In this document: one piece after another, positions 16,253 to 58,173 of the stretch
Layout: every line of letters starts with the position of its first letter
How positions within the stretch are numbered: position 1 is the stretch's first letter
DNA from: a virus
Taxonomy: Duplodnaviria > Heunggongvirae > Uroviricota > Caudoviricetes
Reading direction: 5' to 3' (one strand)
IMG/VR virus record: IMGVR_UViG_3300032046_000003
Location: 1-64,000 of that record
DNA length: 64,000 nt
Made by a program: the position numbers and the translations under genes
The notes under the pieces: model-generated
What the model was told of the DNA's origin: nothing
Database searches by the model: none
The model's input: only the letters and a program-made list of their open reading frames with translations

Positions 16253-16465
16253 TTGAAAAATATCAAAGAACTCTTAGGCCCTATTCTTTTATTTTGTTCG
16301 TTCATATTGCTTATATATATAGTTATATGGGGATTCCGGCTGAAGCAGTGGTATGATTTTAATCAAATGCCCAACGTGTGGCAGATTGATAATGGAAATA
16401 TAATGCAAATTAAACAAGATGGTAAATGGTTAAATAATGGCCCTAAGATTAGTCTAATTAACTAA
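16253..16465 (+). CDS. small membrane protein
   Basis: TM helix ORF. Confidence 0.35.
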   Translation: MKNIKELLGPILLFCSFILLIYIVIWGFRLKQWYDFNQMPNVWQIDNGNIMQIKQDGKWLNNGPKISLIN

Positions 16466-16514
16466 TCGACGGTGCTTGTACACCAAGGGCCTTAATCTAT
16501 ACAAGGAGATTAGC
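16439..16514 (+). repeat. HEG-associated conserved structured element, copy 1
   Basis: ..CTAAGATTAGTCTAATTAACTAATCGACGGTGCTTGTACACCAAGGGCCTTAATCT..AAGGAGATTAGC; outer stem GGCCCT/AGGGCC. Confidence 0.55.
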
Positions 16515-17129
16515 ATGAAATTATGTGAATGTAATTGTGGACAATTAGCTAAAAACAGATTCATTAATGGCCATAATAATAGAGGAAAGCCTTCTACATT
16601 TAAAGGAAGACACCACACAGAAGAAGCAAGAATGAATATAAGTAAAGCTTTAATGGGACATAAATATCCTAAAGAAAGAAACGAAAAAATTAGCAAAACA
16701 ATGAAAGGCAAAAAGAAAGCGCCTTTTACTGAAATACATAAGAATCATATAAGTGAGGCTCGTAAAGGTATTAAATTTTCTAGACAACACACAAGAAAGC
16801 TAAGATTAAAAACTATTGAAAGAATAAATAAAAATTTTGGTATTTGTTTTCCAGCTTATAATAAAAAAGCTTGTGAATTCTTTAAAAGTTATGATAACAT
16901 ACACAACACTCAAGGCCATTATGCAATGTATGGCGGCGGGGAATATCTTATTAAAGAGCTTGGCTATTGGCTAGATTACATCAATTTTGACAAGAAGATA
17001 ATTATAGAGTGGGACGAAATAAAGCATTATAATGAAGGAGGGGAGCTAAAAAGTAAAGATAAAATTAGGCAACAAGAGATTGAGCAAATGTATCCCGATT
17101 TCAAATTTATAAGAATAAGAGAGGTGTAA
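16515..17129 (+). CDS. homing endonuclease-like protein (CxC zinc motif + NUMOD3-like repeats + C-terminal nuclease-like domain)
   Basis: MKLCECNCG..NGHNN; HTEEARMNISKALMG, NEKISKTMKGKK, HISEARKGIKF repeats; ATG 16515 after AAGGAGATTAGC. Confidence 0.6.
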   Translation: MKLCECNCGQLAKNRFINGHNNRGKPSTFKGRHHTEEARMNISKALMGHKYPKERNEKISKTMKGKKKAPFTEIHKNHISEARKGIKFSRQHTRKLRLKTIERINKNFGICFPAYNKKACEFFKSYDNIHNTQGHYAMYGGGEYLIKELGYWLDYINFDKKIIIEWDEIKHYNEGGELKSKDKIRQQEIEQMYPDFKFIRIREV

Positions 17130-17133
17130 TTAA

Positions 17134-17349
17134 ATGGTTATGAGAGACGGAATTTCGATTCAGAGGGACATGAATCTGGTGAACAAGGAATTGGCTAAGC
17201 TGACTGTAGACATGAACAAGTGGAATACAAGAAGGGCGGAGCTTGAATTAGAAGCCGCAGAGATTAGAGAGGTAATGTTTAATCAGCAAGTAGAGGAAAT
17301 GAAGAAAAAGCAGGCCGCAGAAGCTGCTCCTAAGACAGAACAAAAGTAA
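17134..17349 (+). CDS. coiled-coil protein
   Basis: ORF. Confidence 0.35.
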   Translation: MVMRDGISIQRDMNLVNKELAKLTVDMNKWNTRRAELELEAAEIREVMFNQQVEEMKKKQAAEAAPKTEQK

Positions 17350-17364
17350 GGAGTAAAAATAAAA

Positions 17365-17559
17365 ATGTTGAACATAACAGCGTTAAGAGCCGAGCTTCTC
17401 CAGGAGAAAAGAAAGGAGCTCCTTAAAGAGCTCATCAATATGGACATTAAGTCCAGGTTGGACGAATGGATAGACAAAGACTTATATGAGAAGGCCAAGA
17501 AGTCTATAAATGTGATAGAGGACATGCTGCATGACCAGCCCACTCCGCTCGAAAAGTGA
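17365..17559 (+). CDS. hypothetical protein
   Basis: ORF. Confidence 0.35.
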   Translation: MLNITALRAELLQEKRKELLKELINMDIKSRLDEWIDKDLYEKAKKSINVIEDMLHDQPTPLEK

Positions 17560-17725
17560 CTTTGTAAGATACGGAGTTTGCACCGAGTGCGGGAAGCTGT
17601 TCAAGGCCTCTGCGGACAATAAAGAGGCTGAAATAACTATTTTAGACACGATAAGGGAATTCTGGAAGCCCGGCATTTGCGAGACGTGTAAGAAAGAAAA
17701 GGAGGAGTACAGTGGAAGAAGATAA
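17531..17725 (+). CDS. small zinc-ribbon protein
   Basis: CTECGKLF...CETCKK. Confidence 0.35.
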   Translation: MTSPLRSKSDFVRYGVCTECGKLFKASADNKEAEITILDTIREFWKPGICETCKKEKEEYSGRR

Positions 17726-18158
17726 AGCTTTTGATATTGGCGAATTTGTAGTAAGAAATGAGCATTTTGCCGCCACGTATTTTATAGACGCTTTTCTCGA
17801 CCCTACTCTTCTTAAAATAAAGATGAACGATCTGGGACTAAATAAGACCGATTGGACTTTAGATGGTACGCTGTTAGATACAGCAATAAGCGATACGTTA
17901 TATGATATAGACCCTGCTACAATGCTTGATTCTAAATGTAAGATTATCAAGAAAAAAGTGCATAGGGTGATATTAAAGTTTAAAAGATCAGCTAGGGTTA
18001 AGCTCGAGATGTTTAATATTTATTCAATGGGCGACAACGACAAAAAAGAGTACATATTAGAGTCTCTGAAAGAACCTTCAGTTGCTCAAGCAGAAGCCTT
18101 TGTTAAAAAAGTGGTTAATATGTTAATAAAAGAATACGAGGAGTACATAAATGGTTAG
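17712..18158 (+). CDS. hypothetical protein
   Basis: ORF. Confidence 0.4.
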   Translation: MEEDKAFDIGEFVVRNEHFAATYFIDAFLDPTLLKIKMNDLGLNKTDWTLDGTLLDTAISDTLYDIDPATMLDSKCKIIKKKVHRVILKFKRSARVKLEMFNIYSMGDNDKKEYILESLKEPSVAQAEAFVKKVVNMLIKEYEEYING

Positions 18159-18402
18159 GGTTTTAGCATCTATAAGATTCAAAGACGAGGTAATGTTGGA
18201 CAGCGGTAATCCTGCAAGAGACATGAGACAAGCGTATATTGACAAAGCCATATTGACTTTGACAGAGAAAATCATAATTGTCTCGTCTGAGAACAAGGTC
18301 ACCAAGACGGACGTTTATGTGCCTTGGACCAATGTGGTTTCTATGAAGATATACCAGACAATAGAAGGTGATTTGGCTAAATTTCTAGATAATAAGTTAT
18401 AA
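18151..18402 (+). CDS. hypothetical protein
   Basis: ORF. Confidence 0.35.
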   Translation: MVRVLASIRFKDEVMLDSGNPARDMRQAYIDKAILTLTEKIIIVSSENKVTKTDVYVPWTNVVSMKIYQTIEGDLAKFLDNKL

Positions 18403-18407
18403 AATAT

Positions 18408-18704: not shown

Positions 18705-18707
18705 TAT

Positions 18708-18736
18708 TTTACAAATAGACAGTTATAAGGTATAAT
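18708..18736 (+). promoter_or_regulatory. sigma70-like promoter TTTACA-17-TATAAT
   Basis: Hexamers and spacing read directly; 20 nt upstream of REC gene. Confidence 0.5.
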
Positions 18737-18756
18737 ATATATATTAGGAGATTATA

Positions 18757-19771: not shown

Positions 19772-19773
19772 GT

Positions 19774-20875: not shown

Positions 20876-20876
20876 C

Positions 20877-22643: not shown

Positions 22644-24749
22644 ATGAGCGTTGGACTTGACGTGGGAACTATGTTTGTTTGTTCAGCTAGGAAGACTCAG
22701 GACGGCAGAGTCTCATACAGGAAAGACAGGGATATATTCGTAGAGCTGCCGGCAGATACATCAAATTCTAAACAATTCATGGACATGGCGGGGGCAAAAT
22801 TAGTTACGATAGACAACAAGAATTACGCAGTAGGAGAAGAAGCAGTCAACTTTAGCTCTTTCTTCGGTGAGGATTTTAAGAGACCCTTAAAGAACGGCAT
22901 GATCAACCCCTCAGAAGAAGACTTGGCTATTCAGATATTAGACAACATTATAAGGGGTGTTTTAGGCGCTCCTAAACAGCCTGGAGAATTATGCGTGTTC
23001 TCAGTACCAGCAGAGCCTATAGACGAAAAGAGGAATGTCGTGTATCACCAGAAGACGCTTGAGTATTTAATTAAAAAGCAGGGGTTCACAGCAAAGCCTA
23101 TTAACGAATCTCTAGCCATAGTATACTCGGAACTGGCCAAGAACCAGCTTACGGGATTTGGTATATCATGGGGAGCAGGTTTATGTTTAAGTGGAGATAC
23201 AAAAGTGCCTTTACTTAATGGTCAAATTAAGACAATGAGAGAATTATCTGAAGAATATAAAGATAAAGAGTTTTGGTTATACTCCTGTAAAGAAGACGGG
23301 CAAATTGTTCCAGGGTTAGCTTCTAATCCTCGTAAAGTAAAAGAATCAGAAGTTATTAGAATATGGCTTGATAACAATAAATATTTAGATTGCACTCCAG
23401 ACCATAAAATAATGATGCGCAATGGTGAGTATAGAGAGGCTCAGATGCTAAAAGAAAATGATTCTATAATGCCTTTATATAAAGAAGTTGCGTATAAAGA
23501 AAACAAATATAATAAGGGATATTTGAGAGTAAAAAACAACAAAACAAATAGATTTAATTTTGTTCATAGATTGGTTGCTAGTTTCTTCAATAAAATACCT
23601 AAAAATTATATAGTTCATCATAATGATTTTAATAAACTAAATAATGAACCTAATAATTTATATATTTGTTCTATTATAAAACATGGAAAACTTCACAATG
23701 CCGATCATGTGAGGGGTAGAACATGGGAACAAATACTCGGTAGCGAAGAAAGGTCTGAAGAAAGAAAATTGAAACTTTCAAAATCATTAAAGAAAACATA
23801 TAAAGAGCATCCAGAAATTATAAAGAATGCTGCTGAAAAGAGAACAATAAAAAGAGAAGAAAGAATTTGCTTGTGTAAATGCGGTGAAACATTTATTTGT
23901 AAAGAAAATTCAAAACAAAAATATATACACGGGCATGCTATAAGGTTAAGAGAATATAATGAGAATGCTTATAAAAAGGTGATAGCTACTAGAAGATTGA
24001 AAGATAATTATAAACAATCGGATATCACTAAAAATAAAATAAGCGAAAGTTTAAAAGGCAATATTCCCTGGAATAAGGGCTTAAATGGTAATAATTATTT
24101 ATCTCATTATAAAAATGGAATAAAAAACCAAAACTCTTTATATAATCACAAGATTACCAAGATAGAAAAATTAAATAATAAAATTGAAGTTTATGATTTA
24201 TCAGTAAAAGATTATCATAATTTTGCCATAGACGCTGGAATATTTGTGCATAATTGTAATATAAACTTAAGCTATAAAGGATTTCCAGTGTTTGCTTTCT
24301 CGGTTGCTCGCTCAGGAGACTGGATTGACGAGCAGGTCAAGCAAGCCACTGGCAAGCCCACATCAGAAATTGCCGTTATAAAAGAGAATGAGCTTGACTT
24401 GACTAAAGAAGGAGACAACAGAACATTAAGATATTTGAAGAATTATTATGAGGAGTTGGTAGATTATGTTCTTCGCAACATTGTTAGGAAATTTGAACAG
24501 ACTAAAAGGATTCCTCCTACTTTGGATGCCAAGATGAAGACCGCGGAGGCGATACCGATCGTGCTGGCGGGCGGGACATCTCTTCCGAAAGGGTTCCCCG
24601 AGATGTTCAGGGACAGGTTGGAGAAGATAAACTTCCCGTTCAAGATCAGCGAGATTATAATCGCAAAGGAGCCTCTCTTCACGGTCGCTAAAGGCTGCCT
24701 GATAAGCGCAGAAGCGGAAGAGGGTATAACAGAGGCCAACAAGGTTTAA
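22644..24749 (+). CDS. actin-fold ATPase (ParM/MreB/Alp-like) interrupted by an intein
   Basis: Phosphate-1 GLDVGTMFV, phosphate-2 ISWGAG|..|NINL split by intein, adenosine motif VLAGGTSLP; ATG 22644 after AAGGAGGAAATGTT. Confidence 0.7.
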   Translation: MSVGLDVGTMFVCSARKTQDGRVSYRKDRDIFVELPADTSNSKQFMDMAGAKLVTIDNKNYAVGEEAVNFSSFFGEDFKRPLKNGMINPSEEDLAIQILDNIIRGVLGAPKQPGELCVFSVPAEPIDEKRNVVYHQKTLEYLIKKQGFTAKPINESLAIVYSELAKNQLTGFGISWGAGLCLSGDTKVPLLNGQIKTMRELSEEYKDKEFWLYSCKEDGQIVPGLASNPRKVKESEVIRIWLDNNKYLDCTPDHKIMMRNGEYREAQMLKENDSIMPLYKEVAYKENKYNKGYLRVKNNKTNRFNFVHRLVASFFNKIPKNYIVHHNDFNKLNNEPNNLYICSIIKHGKLHNADHVRGRTWEQILGSEERSEERKLKLSKSLKKTYKEHPEIIKNAAEKRTIKREERICLCKCGETFICKENSKQKYIHGHAIRLREYNENAYKKVIATRRLKDNYKQSDITKNKISESLKGNIPWNKGLNGNNYLSHYKNGIKNQNSLYNHKITKIEKLNNKIEVYDLSVKDYHNFAIDAGIFVHNCNINLSYKGFPVFAFSVARSGDWIDEQVKQATGKPTSEIAVIKENELDLTKEGDNRTLRYLKNYYEELVDYVLRNIVRKFEQTKRIPPTLDAKMKTAEAIPIVLAGGTSLPKGFPEMFRDRLEKINFPFKISEIIIAKEPLFTVAKGCLISAEAEEGITEANKV
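23184..24254 (+). mobile_element. intein (357 aa) with HNH endonuclease and CxCxCG zinc motif
   Basis: Starts CLSGDTKV (block A), ends ..FVHN followed by extein Cys (HN/C junction); internal HHNDFNKLNNEPNNLYICSIIKHGKLH (HNH) and ICLCKCGETFICKENSKQKYIHGH. Confidence 0.7.
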
Positions 24750-25167: not shown

Positions 25168-25253
25168 CTGGGTGTGGGTCAACTTGGTAGATCACTCGGC
25201 TTGGGACCGAGAGCGTATACGCTTTAATGCAGGTTCAAATCCTGTCACCCAGA
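25168..25253 (+). tRNA. tRNA-Pro(TGG)-like carrying a 12-nt palindromic hairpin (AGCGTATACGCT) in the variable loop
   Basis: Hand-folded cloverleaf: 7-bp acceptor CTGGGTG/CACCCAG, D arm, anticodon loop CTTGGGA, T loop TTCAAAT; removing 25212-25223 restores a 5-nt V loop. Confidence 0.5.
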
Positions 25254-25264
25254 TAAATTAGTAA

Positions 25265-25343
25265 AAGTCGGCTTAGTGTAACGGTAGCATCCAGAATGCT
25301 CGCAAGAGCCAACTGGAGAGTGGTTCGATTCCACAGCCGAAAC
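25265..25343 (+). tRNA. tRNA-like sequence, aberrant fold (possible pseudo-tRNA)
   Basis: T arm GTGG-TTCGATT-CCAC and GCTCGCAAGAGC GNRA hairpin, but no clean acceptor/anticodon arms by hand. Confidence 0.3.
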
Positions 25344-25351
25344 GAATTTAT

Positions 25352-25423
25352 CGCAGGGTGGAGCAGTGGCAGCTCGCTGGGCTCATACCCCGGAGGTCGC
25401 GGGTCCGATTCCCGTCCCTGCTA
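25352..25423 (+). tRNA. tRNA-fMet-like (CAT), initiator features
   Basis: C1:T72 mismatch, three GC pairs in anticodon stem, loop CTCATAC, T loop TCCGATT. Confidence 0.7.
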
Positions 25424-25437
25424 TAAATTAAATATAC

Positions 25438-25505
25438 GGCAGAAGACGTAAGGTGGGATTCCTTACAGCGGCAATAGCTGCTTAGTTTAGTATAGAACGT
25501 CTGCC
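25438..25505 (+). other. structured intergenic RNA candidate (three-helix element)
   Basis: GGCAGA..TCTGCC outer stem enclosing GTAAGG-TGGGATT-CCTTAC and CAGC..GCTG hairpins. Confidence 0.3.
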
Positions 25506-25528
25506 ATTGAATTGAAAAGGAGATTGAA

Positions 25529-25603
25529 ATGAACTCGAACGATTGTTGTAGATTGACCTGGTGGCTGAATGGCCTAGGCGACGATCTGCAAAATCGTATA
25601 TGA
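25529..25603 (+). CDS. leader-peptide-like ORF MNSNDCCRLTWW.. (tandem Cys and Trp codons) preceding/overlapping tRNA-Cys
   Basis: SD AAAAGGAG 6 nt before ATG; TGT TGT at 25544-25549, 5 nt before tRNA-Cys 5' end. Confidence 0.5.
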   Translation: MNSNDCCRLTWWLNGLGDDLQNRI

Positions 25604-25626
25604 GAGTTCGATTCTCTTCCAGGTCT
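25555..25626 (+). tRNA. tRNA-Cys(GCA)
   Basis: Acceptor GACCTGG/CCAGGTC, anticodon stem ACGAT/ATCGT, loop CTGCAAA, T loop TTCGATT. Confidence 0.75.
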
Positions 25627-25639
25627 CAAAAAATAAATT

Positions 25640-25728
25640 AACTAGGTGTGAGGCCGACGGTAATGCGGCAGGGGTAGTTGAAGGCTACATAAGTGATGCT
25701 TCACATCAACCTTTTGTGACACCTAGTT
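25640..25728 (+). other. structured intergenic element bounded by perfect 10-bp inverted repeat AACTAGGTGT / ACACCTAGTT
   Basis: Exact IR read directly; internal GCCG..CGGC and TGATG..CATCA hairpins; not tRNA-like. Confidence 0.35.
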
Positions 25729-25750
25729 TAAAATAAGGAGTAATATAAAA

Positions 25751-25801
25751 ATGTTTTACAAGGGTTACACGACGACAACAACTACGGGGACCAGCAACTA
25801 A
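25751..25801 (+). CDS. leader-peptide-like ORF MFYKGYTTTTTTGTSN (six consecutive Thr codons) preceding tRNA-Thr
   Basis: SD AAGGAG upstream; ACG ACG ACA ACA ACT ACG at 25769-25786. Confidence 0.55.
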   Translation: MFYKGYTTTTTTGTSN

Positions 25802-25821
25802 GCTGGCGTAGTCGACTGCGT

Positions 25822-25902
25822 GCCGGTGTAGCTCAAAATAAAAGGCAGAGCAACGGTTTTGTAAACCGAAGGTTGGGGGTTCAAGTCCTCTCGCCGGCCC
25901 CA
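25822..25902 (+). tRNA. tRNA-Thr(TGT) with encoded CCA
   Basis: Acceptor GCCGGTG/CGCCGGC, anticodon loop TTTGTAA, T loop TTCAAGT, long D loop; CCA at 25900-25902. Confidence 0.6.
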
Positions 25903-25922
25903 AATTTAAAGGAGATTACAAA

Positions 25923-25979
25923 ATGAATTCGACGGATTATCATCATAGCACACTTGCCATCATGGTGAGCGTAGCTTAG
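25923..25979 (+). CDS. leader-peptide-like ORF MNSTDYHHSTLAIMVSVA (His-His) preceding/overlapping tRNA-His
   Basis: SD AAAGGAGATT; CAT CAT at 25941-25946; N-terminus and SD near-identical to the Cys leader. Confidence 0.5.
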   Translation: MNSTDYHHSTLAIMVSVA

Positions 25980-26036
25980 TGGTAAAGCGCCTGCCTGTGA
26001 AACAGGAGAGGTGAGTTCGATTCTCGCCGTTCACAT
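25964..26036 (+). tRNA. tRNA-His(GTG) with G-1
   Basis: Extra 5' G before GTGAGCG, anticodon loop CTGTGAA, T loop TTCGATT. Confidence 0.8.
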
Positions 26037-26041
26037 AAAAT

Positions 26042-26494
26042 ATGAATAAGAAAAAAGATATGGTAATTGTTTCTGGAATTGATGCTTTAAGCCCTTTACT
26101 TGAACAATATAATAAGCGGTTTAAAATTTATAGAGACAGATACTATAAGTTATCTAAGCAGAAAAAAGAAATGATTGATGTACATACAAGTGAAATTATA
26201 GGTATATATAGCCTTAAAAAAGAGTTTAAAAAAATTGGTTTTGTGGTTGAGGATATGAAAAAAACATTAGAGGATGACACTCTAAAACATATTCCTAAAC
26301 TTCGTAAATCTTTAATGAAAGATTTTAGCAAAGATATAATATTTAAGTTAAAACTCGACGAATTAGATAATTGTTTCGGGAAATCTAAAGTAATTTTAAC
26401 ATCGACATTTGAAACATATATTAGTGATGAAGCAGTAAAAAAAGATTTTATTTTAGTGGTGATATTAAAATTAACTGAATGGGTGAAAAAATAA
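26042..26494 (+). CDS. hypothetical protein embedded in tRNA array
   Basis: 150-aa ORF. Confidence 0.45.
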   Translation: MNKKKDMVIVSGIDALSPLLEQYNKRFKIYRDRYYKLSKQKKEMIDVHTSEIIGIYSLKKEFKKIGFVVEDMKKTLEDDTLKHIPKLRKSLMKDFSKDIIFKLKLDELDNCFGKSKVILTSTFETYISDEAVKKDFILVVILKLTEWVKK

Positions 26495-26508
26495 AGGAGA
26501 GTAGTAAA

Positions 26509-26622
26509 ATGAGTATCGAACCATATTATACTGAGGGTAGTTGGCAGAGTGGTCAATTGCAGCTGCCTGTAGAGCAGCCGGCTTTACGCCTTCAGAGGTT
26601 CGAATCCTTTACTACCCAATAA
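26509..26622 (+). CDS. leader-peptide-like ORF MSIEPYYTEGSW.. (Tyr-Tyr) reading into tRNA-Tyr
   Basis: SD AAAGGAGAG; TAT TAT at 26524-26529, 5 nt before tRNA-Tyr. Confidence 0.5.
   Translation: MSIEPYYTEGSWQSGQLQLPVEQPALRLQRFESFTTQ
26535..26618 (+). tRNA. tRNA-Tyr(GTA), class II (long variable arm)
   Basis: Acceptor GGGTAGT/ACTACCC, anticodon stem GCTGC/GCAGC loop CTGTAGA, T loop TTCGAAT. Confidence 0.8.
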
Positions 26623-26634
26623 ACATAGGAGAAC

Positions 26635-26730
26635 ATGATAATGGACACAGACGATAATAATCGAATTAGTAGCAACTCATTCCTGAGTAGAACAATGGTA
26701 GTTCAATGCACTGTTAATGCATCTATGTAG
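26635..26730 (+). CDS. leader-peptide-like ORF MIMDTDDNNRISS.. (Asp x3, Asn x2) preceding tRNA-Asn and tRNA-Asp
   Basis: SD TAGGAGAAC; GAC ACA GAC GAT AAT AAT at 26644-26661. Confidence 0.5.
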   Translation: MIMDTDDNNRISSNSFLSRTMVVQCTVNASM

Positions 26731-26751
26731 GTTCAATTCCTGCCTCAGGAG
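26681..26751 (+). tRNA. tRNA-Asn(GTT)
   Basis: Acceptor TCCTGAG/CTCAGGA, anticodon stem ATGCA/TGCAT loop CTGTTAA, T loop TTCAATT. Confidence 0.8.
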
Positions 26752-26764
26752 TTGGTCGTTACCT

Positions 26765-26836
26765 GGGGTCATGGTATAACGGTTATTACGACTGATTGTC
26801 GATCAGTAAATCGGAGTTCAATTCTCCGTGGCCCCG
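26765..26836 (+). tRNA. tRNA-Asp(GTC)
   Basis: Acceptor GGGGTCA/TGGCCCC, anticodon stem ACTGA/TCAGT loop TTGTCGA, T loop TTCAATT. Confidence 0.8.
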
Positions 26837-26908
26837 TTAAAGCGTTGTTTTAATCTAGTTGATAGGGTAAAAAATTAAAGCTTATATAAGAGTATCAACA
26901 CAATACAT

Positions 26909-26980
26909 TCTCGAGTAGTTCAGCGGGAGAATAACTCCCCTACAAGGAGAAGGTCGCTGGTTCGATCCCAGCCTCGAGAA
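26909..26980 (+). tRNA. tRNA, anticodon TAC (Val?) with unusual C33
   Basis: Acceptor TCTCGAG/CTCGAGA, T loop TTCGATC; anticodon loop read as CCTACAA. Confidence 0.5.
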
Positions 26981-26985
26981 TTTAT

Positions 26986-27056
26986 GGGCCAATAGTTCAG
27001 TGGTAGAACACTCGGCTCATAACCGAAATAGCTTGGTCCGATTCCAGGTTGGCCCA
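26986..27056 (+). tRNA. tRNA(CAT), Ile2(LAU)-like (or elongator Met)
   Basis: Acceptor GGGCCAA/TTGGCCC with C4:G69, C5:G68 and anticodon-stem C29:G41 (TilS-type identity set); loop CTCATAA. Confidence 0.7.
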
Positions 27057-27080
27057 GTTAAATTAAAGGAGATGGTAAAA

Positions 27081-27152
27081 ATGATAGACATAGGAAACAT
27101 AAATATATATAACATTATTGCCGTATCCTGGTCGAGCTCAAGTAGTAATTAA
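27081..27152 (+). CDS. leader-peptide-like ORF MIDIGNINIYNIIAVSWSSSSSN (Ile x7 incl. 4 ATA, Ser x5, Trp) between tRNA-CAT and tRNA-Trp
   Basis: SD AAAGGAGATGG; own translation. Confidence 0.4.
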   Translation: MIDIGNINIYNIIAVSWSSSSSN

Positions 27153-27160
27153 TTACTTTT

Positions 27161-27231
27161 GGGTTCGTAGTTTAATGGAAAAATCATCGTCTCCAAAACG
27201 ATAGTTGTAGGTTCGATTCCTACCGAGCCCG
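27161..27231 (+). tRNA. tRNA-Trp(CCA)
   Basis: Acceptor GGGTTCG/CGAGCCC, anticodon loop CTCCAAA, T arm GTAGG-TTCGATT-CCTAC. Confidence 0.8.
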
Positions 27232-27245
27232 TAATATTTGGAGAG

Positions 27246-27848
27246 ATGGCAGAATGGCTATTGCGCTAACTAAGGAGTAATATGGCTAAAAAGGGTTGCA
27301 TTCCCTGGAATAAAAATTTAACCAAAGAAACAGACGAGAGAGTTAAGAAAAACGGAGAAAATGTTAGTAAAGCAATGACTGGTAGAAAATGGAAACCAAA
27401 AACTTCAGAATCGGCTTTATTACGAATTGAAAGAATTAAAAACGCTGCTAAGAAATATGGAAGAATGGGCGGATATAGAGAAAGAAGTGGTAGGGGTAAA
27501 CAAGGCAGATATAAAGGATATTGGTGTCAAAGTAGTTGGGAATTAGCTTATGTTATTTATAATTTAGAACATGCAATAAAATTCGAAAGGAATAAAGAAG
27601 GGTTTGAATATATTTTTGAAGGCAAAAAACATCTTTATTTCCCAGATTATATAGAAAATAGTTTTTACGTAGAGATTAAAGGTTATTTAACTAAACAAAT
27701 GCAAGTAAAAATAGCTAGTTTTAATAAACCATTAAGAGTTTTGCGAGAGGAAGATATACGGTCTATTTTAAATTATGTGACTCAAAAATATGGTAATGAT
27801 TTTATAAGACTATATGAGCCGTAGGTTCGAATCCTTCTCTCTCCGCCA
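27246..27848 (+). tRNA. class-II (Ser-like) tRNA gene interrupted by a 0.56-kb insertion carrying a homing-endonuclease ORF; 5' part 27246-c.27283, 3' part c.27806-27848 (GCCA end)
   Basis: 5' GGAGAGA-TG-GCAGAATGGCTATTGC and 3' GTAGG-TTCGAAT-CCTTC-TCTCTCC-G-CCA; acceptor halves perfectly complementary; closely resembles neighbouring tRNA-Ser(GCT). Confidence 0.45.
27282..27824 (+). CDS. homing endonuclease-like protein (NUMOD-like N-terminus + PD-(D/E)xK-like nuclease) inserted in tRNA gene
   Basis: GCIPWNKNL motif; FPDYIENSFYVEIKG (PD..ExK); SD AAGGAG. Confidence 0.6.
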   Translation: MAKKGCIPWNKNLTKETDERVKKNGENVSKAMTGRKWKPKTSESALLRIERIKNAAKKYGRMGGYRERSGRGKQGRYKGYWCQSSWELAYVIYNLEHAIKFERNKEGFEYIFEGKKHLYFPDYIENSFYVEIKGYLTKQMQVKIASFNKPLRVLREEDIRSILNYVTQKYGNDFIRLYEP

Positions 27849-27851
27849 ATT

Positions 27852-27936
27852 GGAGAGGTGGCCGAGCGGTTTAAGGCGCTTGTTTGCTAAACAAGTATAT
27901 CGAAAGGTATCATAGGTTCAAATCCTATTCTCTCCG
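27852..27936 (+). tRNA. tRNA-Ser(GCT), class II
   Basis: Acceptor GGAGAGG/TCTCTCC, D loop GCCGAGCGGTTTAAGGC, anticodon loop TTGCTAA, long V arm, T loop TTCAAAT. Confidence 0.8.
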
Positions 27937-27954
27937 TTTTTTTAAAGGAGTAAT

Positions 27955-28734
27955 ATGCCTGGTACTTCAAATGGTAATTATGGAAGAAGTATGTATTCCG
28001 ATCCAAAATGGAGAAGAAAAATAGCAGTAGGACATGTATATAAGAGAATAAATATTAAGAAAATATGTTCTAAATGCAATAATATATTTATAATTGAAAG
28101 AAAAATAGATAAAAATGGTAATGAAGTAGTTTATAATAAAGAAAAGAAATATTGTTTTAGGAAGTGTGCCAATTCTCACGTTCAAACAAAAGAAATAAAT
28201 GATAAAAGAGCAATAAAATTAAGAAAAAAACAGCATAAAATACACTATATAGAGTGTAAATTTTGTCATAAAATTTTTATAGGTAAACTTAAAAGTAGAT
28301 TTTGTAGCAGAAAATGTGTTAACTTAATGCGTAGAATTGAACTTGATGAATATAATAAATACAAAGCAAATTGTCAGTTTAAATTTTCTTTAAATGAATA
28401 TAAAAATAGATTTAATTTTTTATTAATTGAAAAGTTTGGTTGGTATAAGGCTAAAAATAGAGGTAATAATTTAAAAGGTATTTCAAGAGATCATATTATT
28501 TCTATAAATTATGGATTTGAAAATAATATTTCTCCTGAAATTATTTCTCATCCGGCTAATTGTCAACTATTAAGACATAACGAGAATATTTCTAAGGGTA
28601 AAAAATGTGGCTTAACACTAGATCAGCTATTGGACAAAATAGCAAAATGGGATTGTGGTGTAAATGGGAACACTTCTGACTTGCAATCAGAGGATCCGAG
28701 TTCGAGCCTCGGCTATTCCAATAATAGCGTATGA
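27955..28734 (+). CDS. HNH homing endonuclease with Cys-rich zinc fingers; ORF reads through tRNA-Ala at its 3' end
   Basis: CSKCNN..CFRKCANSH zinc motifs; GISRDHIISINYG..NCQLLRHNENISKG HNH; true stop may be earlier than track. Confidence 0.6.
   Translation: MPGTSNGNYGRSMYSDPKWRRKIAVGHVYKRINIKKICSKCNNIFIIERKIDKNGNEVVYNKEKKYCFRKCANSHVQTKEINDKRAIKLRKKQHKIHYIECKFCHKIFIGKLKSRFCSRKCVNLMRRIELDEYNKYKANCQFKFSLNEYKNRFNFLLIEKFGWYKAKNRGNNLKGISRDHIISINYGFENNISPEIISHPANCQLLRHNENISKGKKCGLTLDQLLDKIAKWDCGVNGNTSDLQSEDPSSSLGYSNNSV
28649..28720 (+). tRNA. tRNA-Ala(TGC) (G3:U70 present; one acceptor mismatch)
   Basis: Acceptor GGGATTG/CTATTCC, D stem GTGT/ACAC, anticodon stem TCTGA/TCAGA loop CTTGCAA, T arm CCGAG-TTCGAGC-CTCGG. 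Confidence 0.6.
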
Positions 28735-28754
28735 AATTAAAAAAGAGAATTAAA

Positions 28755-28883
28755 ATGAGAGTATGGGGATTGCCTTGCACAAGGAAAGTTGGTACTCAAG
28801 TCATAGAATCTAAGAAGAATAAACTTAATACGCGTAGAGCACTTAAGAGGAAACTTCAAAAAGAAATTGCGGGTATAGTATAA
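28755..28883 (+). CDS. small basic ORF (42 aa) ending inside tRNA-Gly
   Basis: Own translation MRVWGLPCTRKVGTQ..; weak SD. Confidence 0.25.
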   Translation: MRVWGLPCTRKVGTQVIESKKNKLNTRRALKRKLQKEIAGIV

Positions 28884-28940
28884 TTGGAAGTATACTTGCC
28901 TTCCAAGCAGGTGGAGCAGGTTCGAAACCTGTTACCCGCT
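28870..28940 (+). tRNA. tRNA-Gly(TCC)
   Basis: Acceptor GCGGGTA/TACCCGC, anticodon loop CTTCCAA, T loop TTCGAAA. Confidence 0.8.
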
Positions 28941-28946
28941 TAAAAT

Positions 28947-29017
28947 GCGGATGTAATTTAATGGTAGAATTCCTGGTTGCCAACTAGGATATACGGGTTC
29001 GAGTCCCGTCAACCGCT
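28947..29017 (+). tRNA. tRNA-Gly(GCC)
   Basis: Acceptor GCGGATG/CAACCGC (1 mismatch), anticodon loop TTGCCAA, T loop TTCGAGT. Confidence 0.7.
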
Positions 29018-29043
29018 CAAATAAAGTAGAAGGGGGTGTTAAA

Positions 29044-29136
29044 ATGGTAGACGCTGCCCCAGAAGATTACAAGTTGGCTGAGGAACAGATGAACGAAGAG
29101 TTATTAAATTTAGCAGAAGTAGAAATAATAGAATAA
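29044..29136 (+). CDS. leader-peptide-like ORF MVDAAPEDYKLAEEQMNEELLNLAEVEIIE (Glu x8)
   Basis: Own translation; no Glu tRNA seen downstream in window. Confidence 0.35.
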   Translation: MVDAAPEDYKLAEEQMNEELLNLAEVEIIE

Positions 29137-29145
29137 GGAGATAAA

Positions 29146-29202
29146 ATGTTCCAATTAGTTATAAAGCGAAAACGCAGGAGATGCGCTCGAAAGAGCGCAT
29201 AA
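29146..29202 (+). CDS. leader-peptide-like ORF MFQLVIKRKRRRCARKSA (Arg x5 incl AGG AGA, Lys x3) preceding tRNA-Arg(TCT) and tRNA-Lys(TTT)
   Basis: SD AAGGAGATAAA; 3' end folds as TGCGCTC-GAAA-GAGCGCA hairpin. Confidence 0.5.
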   Translation: MFQLVIKRKRRRCARKSA

Positions 29203-29210
29203 TGCGTCAC

Positions 29211-29283
29211 GCCCATATAGCTCAATTGGATAGAGTATCGGATTTCTAATCCGAAAATGTAAGTTCAAGTCTTACTATGGGCA
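29211..29283 (+). tRNA. tRNA-Arg(TCT)
   Basis: Acceptor GCCCATA/TATGGGC, anticodon loop TTTCTAA, T loop TTCAAGT. Confidence 0.8.
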
Positions 29284-29291
29284 TACTTTTT

Positions 29292-29362
29292 GTGCCTATA
29301 ACTTAATGGTAAAGTAGGTGGCTTTTAACCATCAAATGAAAGTTCGATTCTTTCTAGGCACA
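29292..29362 (+). tRNA. tRNA-Lys(TTT)
   Basis: Acceptor GTGCCTA/TAGGCAC, anticodon loop CTTTTAA, T loop TTCGATT. Confidence 0.8.
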
Positions 29363-38558: not shown

Positions 38559-39286
38559 GCATGAAGATAAACTATTTTTGTAAAGTATACAACGAAGAAA
38601 GAATCTTACCGTATGTATTTAGGCATTATGACCAATTTGTAGATCACTACTTTATTTGGAATCACGCGTCAACGGATAAGACTAGAGAACTATTAGCTAA
38701 AAATCCAAAAGTTACCATAATCGATCTGTCTGCAGGACTATTTGACGACACAGAAAATATGAATATAAAGAATAGCGGCTGGCAGCAATATGCCAAAGAT
38801 TGCGACTGGGTCATCATTTGCGATTTTGACGAGTTTTTATATCACCCAGATTTGCTCAATATACTAGAAAAATACAAAACTGAAGGAATCACTTTTCCTT
38901 ATATAGACGGTTATCAAATGTTCGCCGAAGAGTTCCCCAAAACAGACAAGCAGATTTATGATGTCGTTAAGACTGGTAAAAAGGCTTCAAACTATTGCAA
39001 ACATATGATATTCAATCCTAGCGTATCTCCTAACTATTATTACGGAGCGCACCAAGCTTTTCCAACGGGGCTTAATGTAAAATACAGTGCCAGCGCCGAA
39101 TTGAAGCTTTTGCATTATAAAATTTTTGGAGAAAGCTTTGTTAATGAAATGATGCAGAGAAATGATAGATTAAGCCCAAAGAACAAGTCTCTAGGACAAG
39201 GGGCATACAGTTTAAATCCCGGTTGTTTGTTTAATCCAAAAACTGAATATGAATTGTTAAAAAAAGAGGCAGTGCAGATAATATGA
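38555..39286 (+). CDS. GT-A glycosyltransferase, GT92/DUF23-like (DxDEF motif)
   Basis: RHYDQFV.. and DWVIICDFDEFLYHP blocks; ATGA overlap with DegT stop. Confidence 0.55.
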   Translation: MSMKINYFCKVYNEERILPYVFRHYDQFVDHYFIWNHASTDKTRELLAKNPKVTIIDLSAGLFDDTENMNIKNSGWQQYAKDCDWVIICDFDEFLYHPDLLNILEKYKTEGITFPYIDGYQMFAEEFPKTDKQIYDVVKTGKKASNYCKHMIFNPSVSPNYYYGAHQAFPTGLNVKYSASAELKLLHYKIFGESFVNEMMQRNDRLSPKNKSLGQGAYSLNPGCLFNPKTEYELLKKEAVQII

Positions 39287-42649: not shown

Positions 42650-43401
42650 TGATCGTAAGTAAAGTTTATGGTGGGATCGGCAATCAACTGTTTATGTACG
42701 CCTTCGGACTCTCACAAGCAAGAAGATTAAATACTGAACTTAAATTAGATATAGATATTTTGTTATACAATCCTTATCATTATACTCCATATAATTTTGA
42801 ATTAGTAAATTTCACTGGAGTTGTAGAACAACTAGCAAGCAATGTTAAAGGATTAATTTCAGTAGAAGAAAGCAAGATGGGGACTAATGAAATTAAAAAT
42901 AACTCTATCTTAGACGGATATTGGCAAGATGAGAATCTTTTTGATAATATAAAAGCTGAGTTAAGAAATAAGTTGATATTTAAACAGAAGCCTATATTAA
43001 ATATAAACTCAAATTCAGTCTCTATACACGCCAGAAGAGGCGACTATTTAAATGGTGATTATTTCGTAGACTTGGCTAAAACAGATTATTATAAGAAAGC
43101 GATTGAATACGTTTTAAGTAAAGCTGAAAATCCAACATTTTATATCTTTTCTAATGATATTAATTGGGCTAAAGAATATTTTAGTTTTATAAAACAAAAC
43201 AAAGTATTTTTAAACAATAATACTATAGAAGATTTGTATTTGATGAGTTTATGTAAACATAACATAACAGCAAATAGTACTTATAGTTGGTGGGCAGCTT
43301 GGCTTAACAGTAATCCTGATAAAATTGTTATACAGCCGCATAAGTGGTATGAAACAAAGAATATAGAAAAATTAAAGCAAAGAGGAAGTGTTATAATATG
43401 A
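42649..43401 (+). CDS. GT11 alpha-1,2-fucosyltransferase
   Basis: N-terminal GGIGNQLFMYAFG motif; HARRGDY block. Confidence 0.75.
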   Translation: MIVSKVYGGIGNQLFMYAFGLSQARRLNTELKLDIDILLYNPYHYTPYNFELVNFTGVVEQLASNVKGLISVEESKMGTNEIKNNSILDGYWQDENLFDNIKAELRNKLIFKQKPILNINSNSVSIHARRGDYLNGDYFVDLAKTDYYKKAIEYVLSKAENPTFYIFSNDINWAKEYFSFIKQNKVFLNNNTIEDLYLMSLCKHNITANSTYSWWAAWLNSNPDKIVIQPHKWYETKNIEKLKQRGSVII

Positions 43402-44084
43402 AAAAAAATGCTGCTTTAAAAGTCGTCATTTGTAAAAAATGTAACATAACTTTTCAGGTAAAAGATACAAAGAGAAATATTAACAGACAATTTTGTTCAT
43501 CATTTTGTGCTAAATCTTCAAATGGTAAATTAAATAAGGGTAGAAAGCACTCAAATAGAGTAACTCCGCTTATTACAATAATATGCTTACAATGTAAAAA
43601 TAATTTTGAAGTTAAATATAAACAAAGAAATAGAAAATTTTGTTGTAGAAATTGTTCAGATAAGTTTTATTCTGGTGATAAAAATCCTTCTAAAAGACCT
43701 GAAGTAAGAGAGAAGATTGGTAAAAGAGTGTCAGAAACGCATTGGGATTCATCAGGAAAAAATAATCCTATGTTTAATAAAGGTTATAAATTAAGGGGAA
43801 ACAAAAATGGTGCATGGAAAGGCGGAATAAGTTTTGGAGAATATGGTGAAAATTTTTCAAAAGAATTAAAAACACAAATTAGAAAAAGAGATAATTTTGT
43901 TTGTAAAATATGTGGTAAAAATGGATTCATTATCCATCACATTGACTATGATAAGAAAAATAATGAAGAAAATAATTTGATTAATTTATGTAGATCTTGC
44001 CACGCTAAAACAGGATTTAATAGAAAATATTGGGTAAATTATTTAAAAGGAAAAGAATTATGTCAAAGTCAAAAACTTGTTTAA
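43398..44084 (+). CDS. HNH homing endonuclease with zinc fingers, inserted in glycan island
   Basis: CKKCN..CSSFC, CLQCKN..CCRNC; RDNFVCKICGKNGFIIHHIDYDKKNNEENNLINLCRSCH. Confidence 0.65.
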   Translation: MKKNAALKVVICKKCNITFQVKDTKRNINRQFCSSFCAKSSNGKLNKGRKHSNRVTPLITIICLQCKNNFEVKYKQRNRKFCCRNCSDKFYSGDKNPSKRPEVREKIGKRVSETHWDSSGKNNPMFNKGYKLRGNKNGAWKGGISFGEYGENFSKELKTQIRKRDNFVCKICGKNGFIIHHIDYDKKNNEENNLINLCRSCHAKTGFNRKYWVNYLKGKELCQSQKLV

Positions 44085-54351: not shown

Positions 54352-54353
54352 TC

Positions 54354-55579: not shown

Positions 55580-55583
55580 GAAT

Positions 55584-56309
55584 ATGCCAAAAATAGGATA
55601 TAAACAAACTGAAAATCATAGAAAAATACACTTGGGTGAAAAGCAATCACAGGAAACTATCCAAAAAAAAGCTAATAAACTTAGAGGACAAATAAGAGTA
55701 AAAAGAGAAATAAGAACTTGTATTTGTGGTTGTAAAGAGATATTTGAATGCAGAAAAACATCTAAGCAAAAATATAAAAATTCAAATCATTATAATCACA
55801 AAACAATGTTGGGAAAAATCTTCACCAAACAACATTGTAAAAATATAGCAAAAGAAACTAAAGGTAAACATTTTGATAGAAATAATAAAACTTATGAACA
55901 AATAGTAGAAATAGAAATAGCTAATCAATGGAAAAGAAAACAAAGTGAAGTTCATAAAGGTATAAAATTCACTGAAGAACATCATAAAAATTTAAGTAAA
56001 TCTAAAAAACTACAAAATCATCCTAATTGGCTAGGCGGAAAATCTTTTGAATTATATGGTTTAGAATTTAACAATAACTTAAAAAAACAAGTTAAAGAAC
56101 GTGACGATTATACTTGTCAAATATGTAAATTGAATGAAAAACAATTAAAATTTTTATTTAAAAGAAATAAGCAAATTTTTCACGCACATCACATAGACTA
56201 TAACAAGAAAAACAATAATGAAAATAATTTACTTACTCTTTGCTATTCTTGTCATCCAAAGACTAATTCTAATAGAGAATATTGGATTAGTACTTTAAAA
56301 AGGAGATAA
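55584..56309 (+). CDS. HNH homing endonuclease with CxCGC zinc motif
   Basis: RTCICGCKEIFECRKTSKQKYKNSNH; YTCQICKLNE..FHAHHIDYNKKNNNENNLLTLCYSCH. Confidence 0.65.
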   Translation: MPKIGYKQTENHRKIHLGEKQSQETIQKKANKLRGQIRVKREIRTCICGCKEIFECRKTSKQKYKNSNHYNHKTMLGKIFTKQHCKNIAKETKGKHFDRNNKTYEQIVEIEIANQWKRKQSEVHKGIKFTEEHHKNLSKSKKLQNHPNWLGGKSFELYGLEFNNNLKKQVKERDDYTCQICKLNEKQLKFLFKRNKQIFHAHHIDYNKKNNNENNLLTLCYSCHPKTNSNREYWISTLKRR

Positions 56310-56312
56310 TTC

Positions 56313-57008
56313 ATGACATTACAGTCTTACGTTTTACACGAAAATTTTCTATCAAAATGTGATGGAACCGAAACAAAAACTTTAGACGTTTCTATGTGGC
56401 TTCCTCCAAAAATGTTAGGAATTCAATATAGTCCTGATGACGTAGTTGAAACGCCAGGCGCGCCTTTAGACGCAATTGAATTAAAACAAAGGCAATTAGA
56501 TCAAACTGCAAAAAAACTAGACGAGCCTAAAGAGCATATAGACGAAGTATCTAATAAACTTCCTTACGCTAAAGACGATTCAAGAGTTCTTTTAGAAAAC
56601 AAGTTTCCAACCTCATTAGAATTAGAAGATCAAAATGAAATTAGATCAAAATTTATAACTCTAATAACTGAAGCAGCCAACGATACGGAAAGAAACAAAA
56701 TGCAAGCTTATAATGATAAACGAAAAATAGCTTATGTCCTGGGCGTAAAAGAAGCTTTATTATCCGCGCAAAAAGATATGCAGGAGGGATTTAATTTATA
56801 TACTCTGGTTAATAAATACGCTGAGTTGTCTGGTAAATTTAAAAACGTGTTAGATAGCGAGCAAGACAGCGAGGAATTAAACTACCCTCAATCCAGGCAC
56901 AAAGGTTCTGCAAGCGCTTATTTAAACTTAAGTAATATATTGAGAGATAAATTAGCTGAATATGAACTAATGAAATTTAAGCAAAATATAAAGCCGTCAG
57001 TTCGATAA
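56313..57008 (+). CDS. hypothetical protein (MTLQSY N-terminus)
   Basis: ORF. Confidence 0.4.
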   Translation: MTLQSYVLHENFLSKCDGTETKTLDVSMWLPPKMLGIQYSPDDVVETPGAPLDAIELKQRQLDQTAKKLDEPKEHIDEVSNKLPYAKDDSRVLLENKFPTSLELEDQNEIRSKFITLITEAANDTERNKMQAYNDKRKIAYVLGVKEALLSAQKDMQEGFNLYTLVNKYAELSGKFKNVLDSEQDSEELNYPQSRHKGSASAYLNLSNILRDKLAEYELMKFKQNIKPSVR

Positions 57009-57011
57009 TTT

Positions 57012-57089
57012 GGGGCTAAGATTGAATTAATTACTCAATCGACGGTGCCTTTAACACCCAGCCCCGTAATCTTTAAAGGAGATTAAAAT
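57012..57089 (+). repeat. HEG-associated conserved structured element, copy 2
   Basis: GGGGCTAAGATTGAATTAATTACTCAATCGACGGTGCCTTTAACACCCAGCCCCGTAATCTTTAAAGGAGATTAAA. Confidence 0.55.
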
Positions 57090-57761
57090 ATGATTAAAAC
57101 AACTAGAAAAGGTAAGACTTATGAGGATATTTACGGTGTAGAAAAAGCCAAAGAAATAAGAAAAAGCTTAAGTAAATCTATGAAATCGAATCCTAAAATT
57201 ATTGGTAAAAATAATAGCTTTTATGGAAAGCATCACACTAAAATAGTTTGTAAAGCTATAAGTGAAGCTCATAAAAATAAATTTGGTTCAGAAAGTTCTC
57301 ATTGGGTATCTAGAGAGATTAGAATTTGCAAATGCGGTTGTAAACAAACATTTGAATGCAGAATAAATTCTAATCAAAAATTTATACACGGACATCATAG
57401 AAAAGATAAGTGTCATACAAAAGAAACAATAAGAAAACAAAGACTTGCTGCTATTAAACGTATAGAACAAAATAACGGTCAATGTTGGCCCAATTATAAT
57501 TTAAAAGCCTGTGAATTTTTTAAGAGTTACGACGAGAAATATAATACAAAAGGATTTTACGCCATTTACGGTGGCGGAGAATACTATATAAAAGAGTTAG
57601 GTTACTGGCCGGATTATATTAACTTTGACAAGAAAATTATAATTGAATATGATGAAAATCATCATAATAAACTAAAAGATAAAGACGTTAAAAGACAGCA
57701 AGAAATCCAAGATTTATATCCTGACTTTAAATTTATAAGAATAAAGGAAAATGAATATTAA
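57090..57761 (+). CDS. homing endonuclease-like protein, paralog of 16515 ORF
   Basis: RICKCGCKQTFECRINSNQKFIHGHH; C-terminal block near-identical to 16515 ORF. Confidence 0.6.
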   Translation: MIKTTRKGKTYEDIYGVEKAKEIRKSLSKSMKSNPKIIGKNNSFYGKHHTKIVCKAISEAHKNKFGSESSHWVSREIRICKCGCKQTFECRINSNQKFIHGHHRKDKCHTKETIRKQRLAAIKRIEQNNGQCWPNYNLKACEFFKSYDEKYNTKGFYAIYGGGEYYIKELGYWPDYINFDKKIIIEYDENHHNKLKDKDVKRQQEIQDLYPDFKFIRIKENEY

Positions 57762-57788
57762 ACCGAGTGTAAAATAGGAGGTAAAATC

Positions 57789-58094
57789 ATGTCAATGACA
57801 AATTCTAGTATTACGGCAACCCAAGTTACAAGGCCTACCCAAAGGCTAAAAAGTACAGACGAGAAGATAGAAGAATTAAAACAGCATTTTGCAGAAAATG
57901 CTATAAAAATGGACTTTATGAGGAAGTCAGATGGCTATTTCTATGTTTTAGGACGTATTGGATTAACAGAAAACGATTCTGATTGGCGCATATGGAAAAC
58001 AATTGACGCATCTAAACAAAAAAATGTAGAATATTTATTTAAAAGTAATAATAAAGAAGATGCAAATAATAAATTTAATGAAATAATTAAGTAA
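57789..58094 (+). CDS. hypothetical protein
   Basis: ORF after AGGAGGTAAAATC. Confidence 0.4.
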   Translation: MSMTNSSITATQVTRPTQRLKSTDEKIEELKQHFAENAIKMDFMRKSDGYFYVLGRIGLTENDSDWRIWKTIDASKQKNVEYLFKSNNKEDANNKFNEIIK

Positions 58095-58173
58095 GGGGCT
58101 AAGTTTAAATTGGCTATTTAAACGATGGTGCCTCTAACACCCAGCCCCCAAATCTTTAGAGGAGATAAATAAG
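58095..58173 (+). repeat. HEG-associated conserved structured element, copy 3
   Basis: GGGGCTAAGTTTAAATTGGCTATTTAAACGATGGTGCCTCTAACACCCAGCCCCCAAATCTTTAGAGGAGATAAATAAG. Confidence 0.55.

Follow-up and report, generated by a model that had tools for sequence, protein, structure and literature searches.

Homing-endonuclease genes (HEGs) are thought to spread as independent units into intergenic sites and introns. How they spare the surrounding genes is, to our knowledge, known only from a few gene-specific hairpins of T-even phages. The GIR1 lariat-capping ribozyme, about 180 to 190 nucleotides (nt) long, lies 5′ of the HEG open reading frame (ORF) in nuclear rDNA twin-ribozyme group I introns of protists. 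In the translational riboswitches preQ1-II and SAM-II, and in the loop-loop guanidine-II riboswitch, a loop or tail pairs with the Shine-Dalgarno sequence (SD), and the resulting pseudoknot or kiss blocks initiation within a compact junction fold. In T-even phages, RNA structure sequesters the SDs of I-TevI, I-TevII, I-TevIII, segB and mobE and a late promoter relieves the block; td splicing is reduced when the I-TevI hairpin is lost (PMC2988022). The UA_handle motif, with the UAA/GAN signature ccUAAg/uGAagg, organizes junctions and makes A-minor contacts, and helices inserted at its bulge give UA_h three-way junctions (PMC2615604). Here we describe a structured leader that precedes three nuclease genes in a 64,000-nt stretch of DNA (the window) from a tailed phage of the Caudoviricetes (IMG/VR record IMGVR_UViG_3300032046_000003, positions 1 to 64,000). 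We propose, with a probability of roughly 65%, that this leader is a portable, cis-acting translational damper that would shield the operon or intron in which it sits from nuclease-gene expression.

RESULTS

A leader of four helices and a loop-loop kiss buries the Shine-Dalgarno sequence

An earlier note, made from the letters of the window, had drawn attention to a structured element with compensatory base changes upstream of three HEGs. The three copies that it listed (c1, c2 and c3; Table 1) are full leaders on the plus strand, and each runs to the ATG of a nuclease gene. A 22-mer is common to these copies; window shuffles give an expectation of 0 chance matches. The leader is about 75 nt long. 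Hairpins P2 and P3 branch from a three-way junction closed by the outer stem, P1 (6 bp); a further hairpin, P4 (AAUCU/AGAUU), lies downstream of P1 and contains the SD. P1 covaries as the note had reported, reading GGGGCU/AGCCCC in two window copies and GGCCCU/AGGGCC in the third. P2 (6 to 8 bp) covaries among the same copies (GAUUAGU/ACUAAUC, GAUUGA/UCAAUC and GUUUAAAU/AUUUAAAC), and its loop, L2, varies in sequence and in length (5 to 10 nt). P3 is the short hairpin GGUG/CACC with a loop, L3, of 6 to 7 nt; it had been called invariant, which holds within the window but not in related phages, where it covaries (GGAG/CUCC, GGUUG/CAACC and GACUG/CAGUC). Both stems named in the note are real, but the anatomy was incomplete: P2, P4 and the loop-loop pairing described next had been missed. 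For each of the three window copies, the minimum free energy (MFE) structure given by RNAfold is P1 to P4 (z = -3.2, -3.1 and -1.0).

In the window copies L3 is complementary along its full length to L4, the P4 loop (CCUUUAA:UUAAAGG, CCUCUAA:UUAGAGG and CUUGUA:UACAAG). In all 16 full copies of the family described below, this kiss consists of 6 to 7 contiguous Watson-Crick pairs that cover the whole of L3. It was scored directly, since it cannot be expressed on fixed alignment columns. The 16 copies have 14 distinct L3 sequences, each complementary to its own L4; non-cognate L3/L4 pairs average 3.05 nt, and the observed total was reached in 0 of 20,000 permutations. The leader carries the SD of each endonuclease gene, as the note had stated: in 16 of 16 copies GGAG runs from L4 into the P4 3′ strand and is wholly paired in the full fold, and the ATG follows 2 to 7 nt downstream of P4. 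P4 alone contributes 1.7 to 5.5 kcal/mol and the kiss duplex -3.6 to -8.3 kcal/mol (a bimolecular estimate). Together their energy is comparable to that of SD:anti-SD pairing (-7.7 to -12.3), so that low, leaky initiation would be expected, as from a damper rather than an absolute block.

The fold is conserved in 16 copies from six phage contigs

Related phages were reached through contigs carrying nuclease homologues (handles beginning with L), and two covariance models were built, the first from five copies, with about 80% mean column identity, and the second from eight. The window itself is a segment of a 178-kb phage contig. The models gave 16 full copies on six phage contigs: three in the window and one at L202 9281 (same phage, outside the window), two each on L152, L179 and L217, and three each on L210 and L216. 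A divergent copy lies at L152 11650. No additional full copy was found in the window with the covariance model and its filters off. Loose P3/P1′ sequence patterns produced mostly chance matches in GC-rich contigs, only one, L122/L152, being true. GenBank phages held no near match and no blastn match spanned the leader; between the portal protein and its counterparts in SPO1-like phages, identity is only 26%. Most loci fetched by homology to the 57090 nuclease are without the leader, so that it does not characterize this protein family.

Every one of the 16 copies folds singly into the same four helices (MFE), and RNAalifold independently predicted these helices from the alignment. Pairing holds in 98.8% of the 336 cells of that alignment, and 17 of 21 pairs have both members changed; for P4 the values are 96.3% and 5 of 5 pairs. 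None of 500 shuffles matched the observed pairing and covariation values, and controls with slid partners were only 32 to 55% paired. The non-compensatory stem changes that the earlier note had looked to for disproof did not turn up with more copies. Four of the 336 cells are unpaired, and the sole break in P1 belongs to L210 5948, a copy before a degenerate nuclease gene. The free-standing copies of the window keep full pairing, with compensatory changes among themselves.

The alignment holds five G-U pairs, because of which the fold is sense-strand-specific and points to RNA, not DNA. On the other strand these pairs would be C-A mismatches, which argues against a DNA-level role in which the cassette would be recombined or recognized at a hairpin, in the manner of integron attC. 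Such a role would fit the position of the leader at the 5′ edge of the cassette (see below), and the conserved sequence could give homology for inter-cassette exchange. However, the pairing is centered on the SD and an anti-SD-like loop, which is meaningful only in mRNA, and we give a DNA site next to no credence.

At the junction, U6, A7, A8 and G9 are invariant in 16 of 16 copies, as is the GA after the P2 3′ strand; G34 is kept in 15 and G35 in 12. In every copy the two strands of the junction have the sequences (c/u)c-UAA-g and c-GA(N)-gg. In topology the three-way junction (P1, 2 nt, hairpin, GAN, hairpin, 1 nt, P1) agrees with a type I hammerhead, and the position directly 5′ of an endonuclease ORF, also in introns, would suit a function like that of the lariat-capping ribozyme. 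A small self-cleaving ribozyme or nuclease-processing site that frees the nuclease mRNA from upstream RNA is nevertheless hardly credible. At the junction the hammerhead core CUGANGA/GAA/H is missing: the C and U of CUGANGA are paired in P1, where they covary, and J1/2 is AA only. All bases, G among them, are allowed at J3/1; nucleotides that are invariant as well as unpaired are very few; and no Rfam ribozyme matched at E ≤ 10. Rfam 15 at gathering scores returned tRNAs only for the whole window, and at E ≤ 10 on 56950-58250 it returned no family overlapping the leader. A tRNA-like or RNase P substrate, with P1 and P3 mimicking acceptor and T arm, was considered and rejected: there is no T-loop sequence and no CCA, and P2 is variable.

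The invariant junction (U-AA-G and GA, 16 of 16) also bears on whether the leader could be a responsive switch, in which the junction would bind a small molecule or a protein (of the phage, of the host or the nuclease itself), or would sense upstream terminating ribosomes, and so open or lock the kiss. An aptamer-like junction combined with an SD-pairing pseudoknot resembles translational riboswitches. In c2 and c3 the stop codon of the preceding gene lies 0 to 3 nt before P1, and in c1 a 70-amino-acid (aa) ORF runs into P1-P2, so that terminating ribosomes would melt P1. The linker and P4 5′ strand are often complementary to J1/2 and the P2 5′ strand (up to 8 bp, at L210 6504), a weak signal of alternative pairing (40 of 5,000 permutations). 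As an "anti-sequestor" that would free the SD, this P2 5′/P4 5′ pairing was rejected: it is absent in about half of the copies and energetically unfavored, and in copies of the GUUU class it contains a U-U mismatch. Further, only about 6 junction nt are unpaired and L2 is variable, which leaves little room for a pocket. No Rfam riboswitch matched even at E ≤ 10, and intron copies have no adjoining upstream stop codon. The proteins encoded downstream come from several families, so that autoregulation by a single one of them is hard to reconcile with the data. We consider such a switch improbable.

A bolder form of this idea, which we also doubt, if a shade less strongly, is that the leader represents a new class of portable riboregulator comobilized with HEGs, whose UAA/GAN junction senses a signal and toggles the SD-burying kiss. 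The junction would respond to a metabolite, to a protein of phage or host, to the splicing state or to upstream terminating ribosomes. If true, the riboregulator would time nuclease synthesis to the moment at which homing is possible, and the cassette could colonize any site, even a ribozyme core.

The leader is the 5′ part of a mobile nuclease-gene cassette

On L179, homologues of window genes 55178, 56313, 57789, 58883 and 59271 and of the portal gene are collinear, those of 56313, 57789 and 58883 being direct neighbors with spacings of only 15 to 26 nt. This spacing indicates that 57009-57788 and 58095-58882 of the window are insertions; the cassette at 57009-57788 is missing at the syntenic L179 site. 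The 5′ edges of both insertions coincide with the first base of P1, which identifies leader and nuclease gene as one cassette. The leader is thus the 5′ part of a self-contained mobile nuclease-gene cassette, as the earlier note had supposed. The nucleases downstream are of at least four types: weakly DUF559-like with NUMOD3, Vsr/DUF559, HNH and endonuclease VII.

A structural descriptor (two successive hairpins whose loops are complementary, followed by an SD and a start codon) matched four plus-strand sites in the window; shuffles gave about 0.3 each. Applied to 165 kb of related loci, it returned family members only, plus one weak AT-rich chance match. One window site, c0, is probably a stripped-down relative of the leader, and the core of its P4 (UACCU/AGGUA) is identical to that of the copy at L152 14036. 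Its membership is less certain, since its first hairpin with the following UUUU is terminator-like and could serve as a terminator.

Two further loci show leaders in other states. At L202 9281-9420 (L175 119-260), upstream of the tail-tube gene, an intact leader scoring 91 bits precedes only a 21-aa remnant ORF (MSSFIKGHIAWNKGLTKETNE). On the minus strand of L122, at about 3440-3390, a collapsed leader remnant (GGGCUAAUUCGGUGAACACCCAA) without P2, P4 or SD stands before an HNH gene, which suggests decay of the module.

Cassettes occur inside group I introns of the major capsid gene

The leader is not confined to free-standing genes. Group I introns in the major capsid gene house the cassette on L179, L210, L216, L152 and L217, and at least 9 of the 16 full copies are in this context. 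On L179, the full Rfam Intron_gpI model matched directly upstream of both copies (63.6 and 47.2 bits), and the cassette follows P9. On L210, L216 and L152, the sequence places the cassette in the 5′ half of the intron, apparently after a UAUCGG(U/G)GAAC segment and before the Q/R/S core elements. Its position in these introns was read from the R and S elements, as Rfam cannot bridge a core interrupted by an ORF (L122 and L210). By the same reading, the ORF's 3′ terminus on L210, L216 and L152 would itself encode core elements (...LETTR... as R and ...DDIVRT as S). The cassette thus occupies two different positions within introns, after the complete core on L179 and in the 5′ half elsewhere. 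In the relatives, two to five group I introns, all with a nuclease gene of their own, interrupt the major capsid gene (Table 1).

The prevalence of intron copies would suit a peripheral group I intron domain that aids splicing, the free-standing window copies being relics of former introns. The leader has no fixed place in the ribozyme, however; it always abuts an ORF start and pairs with the SD of that ORF. No group I core element was found near any window copy, yet full compensatory pairing is kept there. We regard an intron domain as very unlikely.

A proposed portable translational damper

In the damper model, the leader would be transcribed as the 5′ part of the mobile HEG mRNA and would act in cis. 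The compact P1/P2/P3 three-way junction would preorganize and present the pyrimidine-rich, anti-SD-like L3 of 6 to 7 nt. L3 would pair over its whole length with the P4 loop, the kiss hiding the first G or Gs of GGAG and the P4 stem the rest. 30S subunits would then seldom load, and the nuclease would be made at a low level only. Because the damper would move with the gene, the cassette could be tolerated in highly expressed late operons (portal, tail tube) and also in capsid-gene group I introns where the ORF overlaps the ribozyme core. At neither kind of site would nuclease overproduction or unfolding of the intron by ribosomes result. By analogy, the insulation logic would be strongest where the ORF overlaps the capsid-intron core.

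Several points weigh against this model. We infer both that the fold represses translation, for which pairing is the sole basis, and that repression is its selected function, and P1 and the kiss are assumed to coexist. A plain hairpin would suffice to hide the SD, and the conserved junction may have a further role; a UAA/GAN motif would explain why the junction is kept over a plain hairpin, and also the lack of covariation in the U-A pair that closes P1. Similarity among the copies is fairly high, and part of the junction conservation may reflect recent common ancestry. The intact L202 leader before its 21-aa remnant could result from a recent deletion or could have a nuclease-independent function. 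Finally, three nuclease genes of the window (Table 1) have no leader, which is therefore not required to carry such a gene. These leaderless genes, one Vsr-like and two HNH, start 4 to about 25 nt past the upstream stop codon or overlap it (ATGA), which suggests a second mode of embedding, by translational coupling.

A temporal switch of the T4 kind would account for the same SD pairing in another way. The fold would form only on read-through transcripts, and a late promoter within or just before the leader would yield transcripts without P1-P3 or the P4 5′ strand, leaving the SD free and the nuclease late. Such switching is documented for I-TevI, I-TevII, I-TevIII, segB and mobE (PMC2988022). 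On L179 a sigma-like gene lies near the portal gene. The earlier note had likened the element to the T4 seg/mob genes, and the likeness extends to structure around the ribosome-binding site of a nuclease gene; no promoter inside the hairpin was found among sigma-70-like sites and TATAAT-type boxes. No copy contains a sigma-70-like site beyond chance, although the late-promoter consensus of this phage may differ. Recurrent intergenic boxes of the TATAAT type (GGTATAAT/CATTATAAT) are absent from the leader. The conserved positions are all accounted for by pairing or by the UAA/GA junction, and L3 and L4 vary freely, which would destroy any overlapping promoter. Moreover, capsid-intron copies already lie within late transcripts. 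We judge a temporal switch unlikely. No terminator was found in the leader copies beyond chance.

Coordinates and neighboring features

Table 1. Leader copies, nuclease genes and other features (window coordinates unless a contig is named; window coordinate = L201 coordinate + 6514).
Feature	Position	Strand	Description	Evidence	Start codon downstream
c0, probable minimal relative	11800-11846	+		Descriptor site; covariance model 19.2 bits, E 0.046 (filters off)	ATG 11847
c0 long hairpin	11800-11809/11816-11825		Loop CCUAAU 11810-11815; no P2
c0 P4	11827-11832/11839-11844		UUACCU/AGGUAA; loop AUUAGG 11833-11838, complementary to first loop
Endonuclease VII-type (HNH) gene after c0	11847-12221	+	124 aa	Pfam Endonuclease_7 on identical gene in L200/L201
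HSP20 gene	12502-12954
Vsr/DUF559 fragment	12974-13273		99 aa
RRM_1 RNA-binding protein gene	13273-13527		84 aa
Leaderless nuclease gene	14491-15240
tRNA genes (18)	16145-16227 and 25168-29362		One 210 nt upstream of c1
ORF with hydrophobic segment	16253-16465		70 aa; crosses P1 and P2 of c1, stop in P2 3′ strand
Leader c1	16439-16514	+		Sequence, fold, covariance model (93-97 bits), 6-bp kiss	ATG 16515
c1 P1	16439-16444/16486-16491
c1 J1/2	16445-16446		AA
c1 P2	16447-16453/16461-16467
c1 J2/3	16468-16470		GAC
c1 P3	16471-16474/16481-16484		L3 CUUGUA 16475-16480
c1 P4	16493-16498/16507-16512		L4 AUACAAGG 16499-16506; SD GGAG straddles L4 and P4
Nuclease gene after c1 (P0017)	16515-17129	+	204 aa	NUMOD3 motif, weak DUF559-like C-terminal domain
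Gene with intein	~22644-24749 (L201 16130-18235)		701 aa	Intein_splicing, HNH_3, NUMOD3
Stretch without long plus-strand ORF	38559-39282		724 nt	Crude gene call
Leaderless nuclease gene	43398-44084
Leaderless nuclease gene	55584-56309
Gene upstream of c2	56313-57008		Stop codon 3 nt before c2
Leader c2	57012-57089	+		Sequence, fold, covariance model, kiss	ATG 57090
c2 P1	57012-57017/57060-57065
c2 P2	57020-57025/57035-57040
c2 P3	57044-57047/57055-57058		L3 CCUUUAA 57048-57054
c2 P4	57067-57072/57080-57085		L4 UUAAAGG 57073-57079
Nuclease gene after c2	57090-57761	+	223 aa; same family as 16515-17129	Weak DUF559 match
Gene upstream of c3	57789-58094		First base of c3 directly follows stop codon
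Leader c3	58095-58173	+		Sequence, fold, covariance model, kiss	ATG 58174
c3 P1	58095-58100/58143-58148
c3 P2	58103-58110/58116-58123
c3 P3	58127-58130/58138-58141		L3 CCUCUAA 58131-58137
c3 P4	58152-58155/58163-58166		L4 UUAGAGG 58156-58162
Nuclease gene after c3	58174-58863	+	229 aa; domain unlike that after c1 and c2	Vsr/DUF559-type domain
Split capsid locus	L179 16800-19681
Split capsid locus	L210 5800-9533
Split capsid locus	L216 4300-8600
Split capsid locus	L152 10000-14814
Split capsid locus	L217
NrdD gene, same phage	L204 5267-9996		Interrupted by inteins

If the 70-aa ORF that overlaps c1 is translated, the c1 junction would be unfolded by ribosomes. A short upstream ORF from an AUG overlapping P1 was rejected as a general feature: it occurs in some copies only and has no SD. 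The genes for HSP20, the Vsr/DUF559 fragment and the RRM protein are direct neighbors. The RRM protein encoded between c0 and c1 is unusual for a phage and could act on RNA structures, for example the leader. With inteins in NrdD and in the 701-aa gene, the genome is heavily colonized by selfish elements. The stretch without a long plus-strand ORF may be a frameshifted or decayed gene.

DISCUSSION

The recurrence of one fold before at least four nuclease types, at free-standing sites and at two positions within capsid-gene introns, provides direct sequence evidence that a regulatory leader belongs to the mobile unit. With its three-way junction and a seven-base kiss at the SD, the leader is a compact natural module with which translational insulation could be studied or engineered, and it forms a clean new RNA family for Rfam-type curation. 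No description of its fold was found in Rfam or in the published literature searched. Should the leader prove to be a constitutive damper and nothing more, it would extend known biology neatly but without surprise.

Like GIR1, the leader is a structured module directly 5′ of an intron-encoded HEG ORF whose expression it would serve; unlike GIR1, it is about 75 nt long, with no ribozyme core and no Rfam match. With preQ1-II, SAM-II and guanidine-II riboswitches it shares an SD-pairing pseudoknot or kiss in a compact junction; it differs from them in having no ligand evidence, no Rfam family match and only about 6 nt of unpaired junction. As far as a sequence signature can tell, the junction matches the UAA/GAN (UA_handle) motif of rRNA, ribozymes and riboswitches, here placed in an mRNA leader and not in a stable RNA.

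The closest parallel is with the T4 HEG hairpins. In both systems a cis structure just 5′ of a phage nuclease gene pairs with the SD, and both intron-borne and free-standing genes are involved. The rationale would also be the same, to limit nuclease synthesis and keep ribosomes off the intron core (PMC2988022). The T4 structures, which are also found at T4 genes 49, e and soc, are simple, gene-specific hairpins with a late promoter inside. In the leader no internal promoter was found among sigma-70-like sites and TATAAT-type boxes, though the phage's own consensus may differ. The principle of sequestering the ribosome-binding site is known from T4; what is new is a conserved module of four helices and a kiss that recurs across nuclease families, phages, and intron and intergenic sites. 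Unlike the T4 hairpins, this one fold stands before at least four types of nuclease on six phage contigs and moves with its gene.

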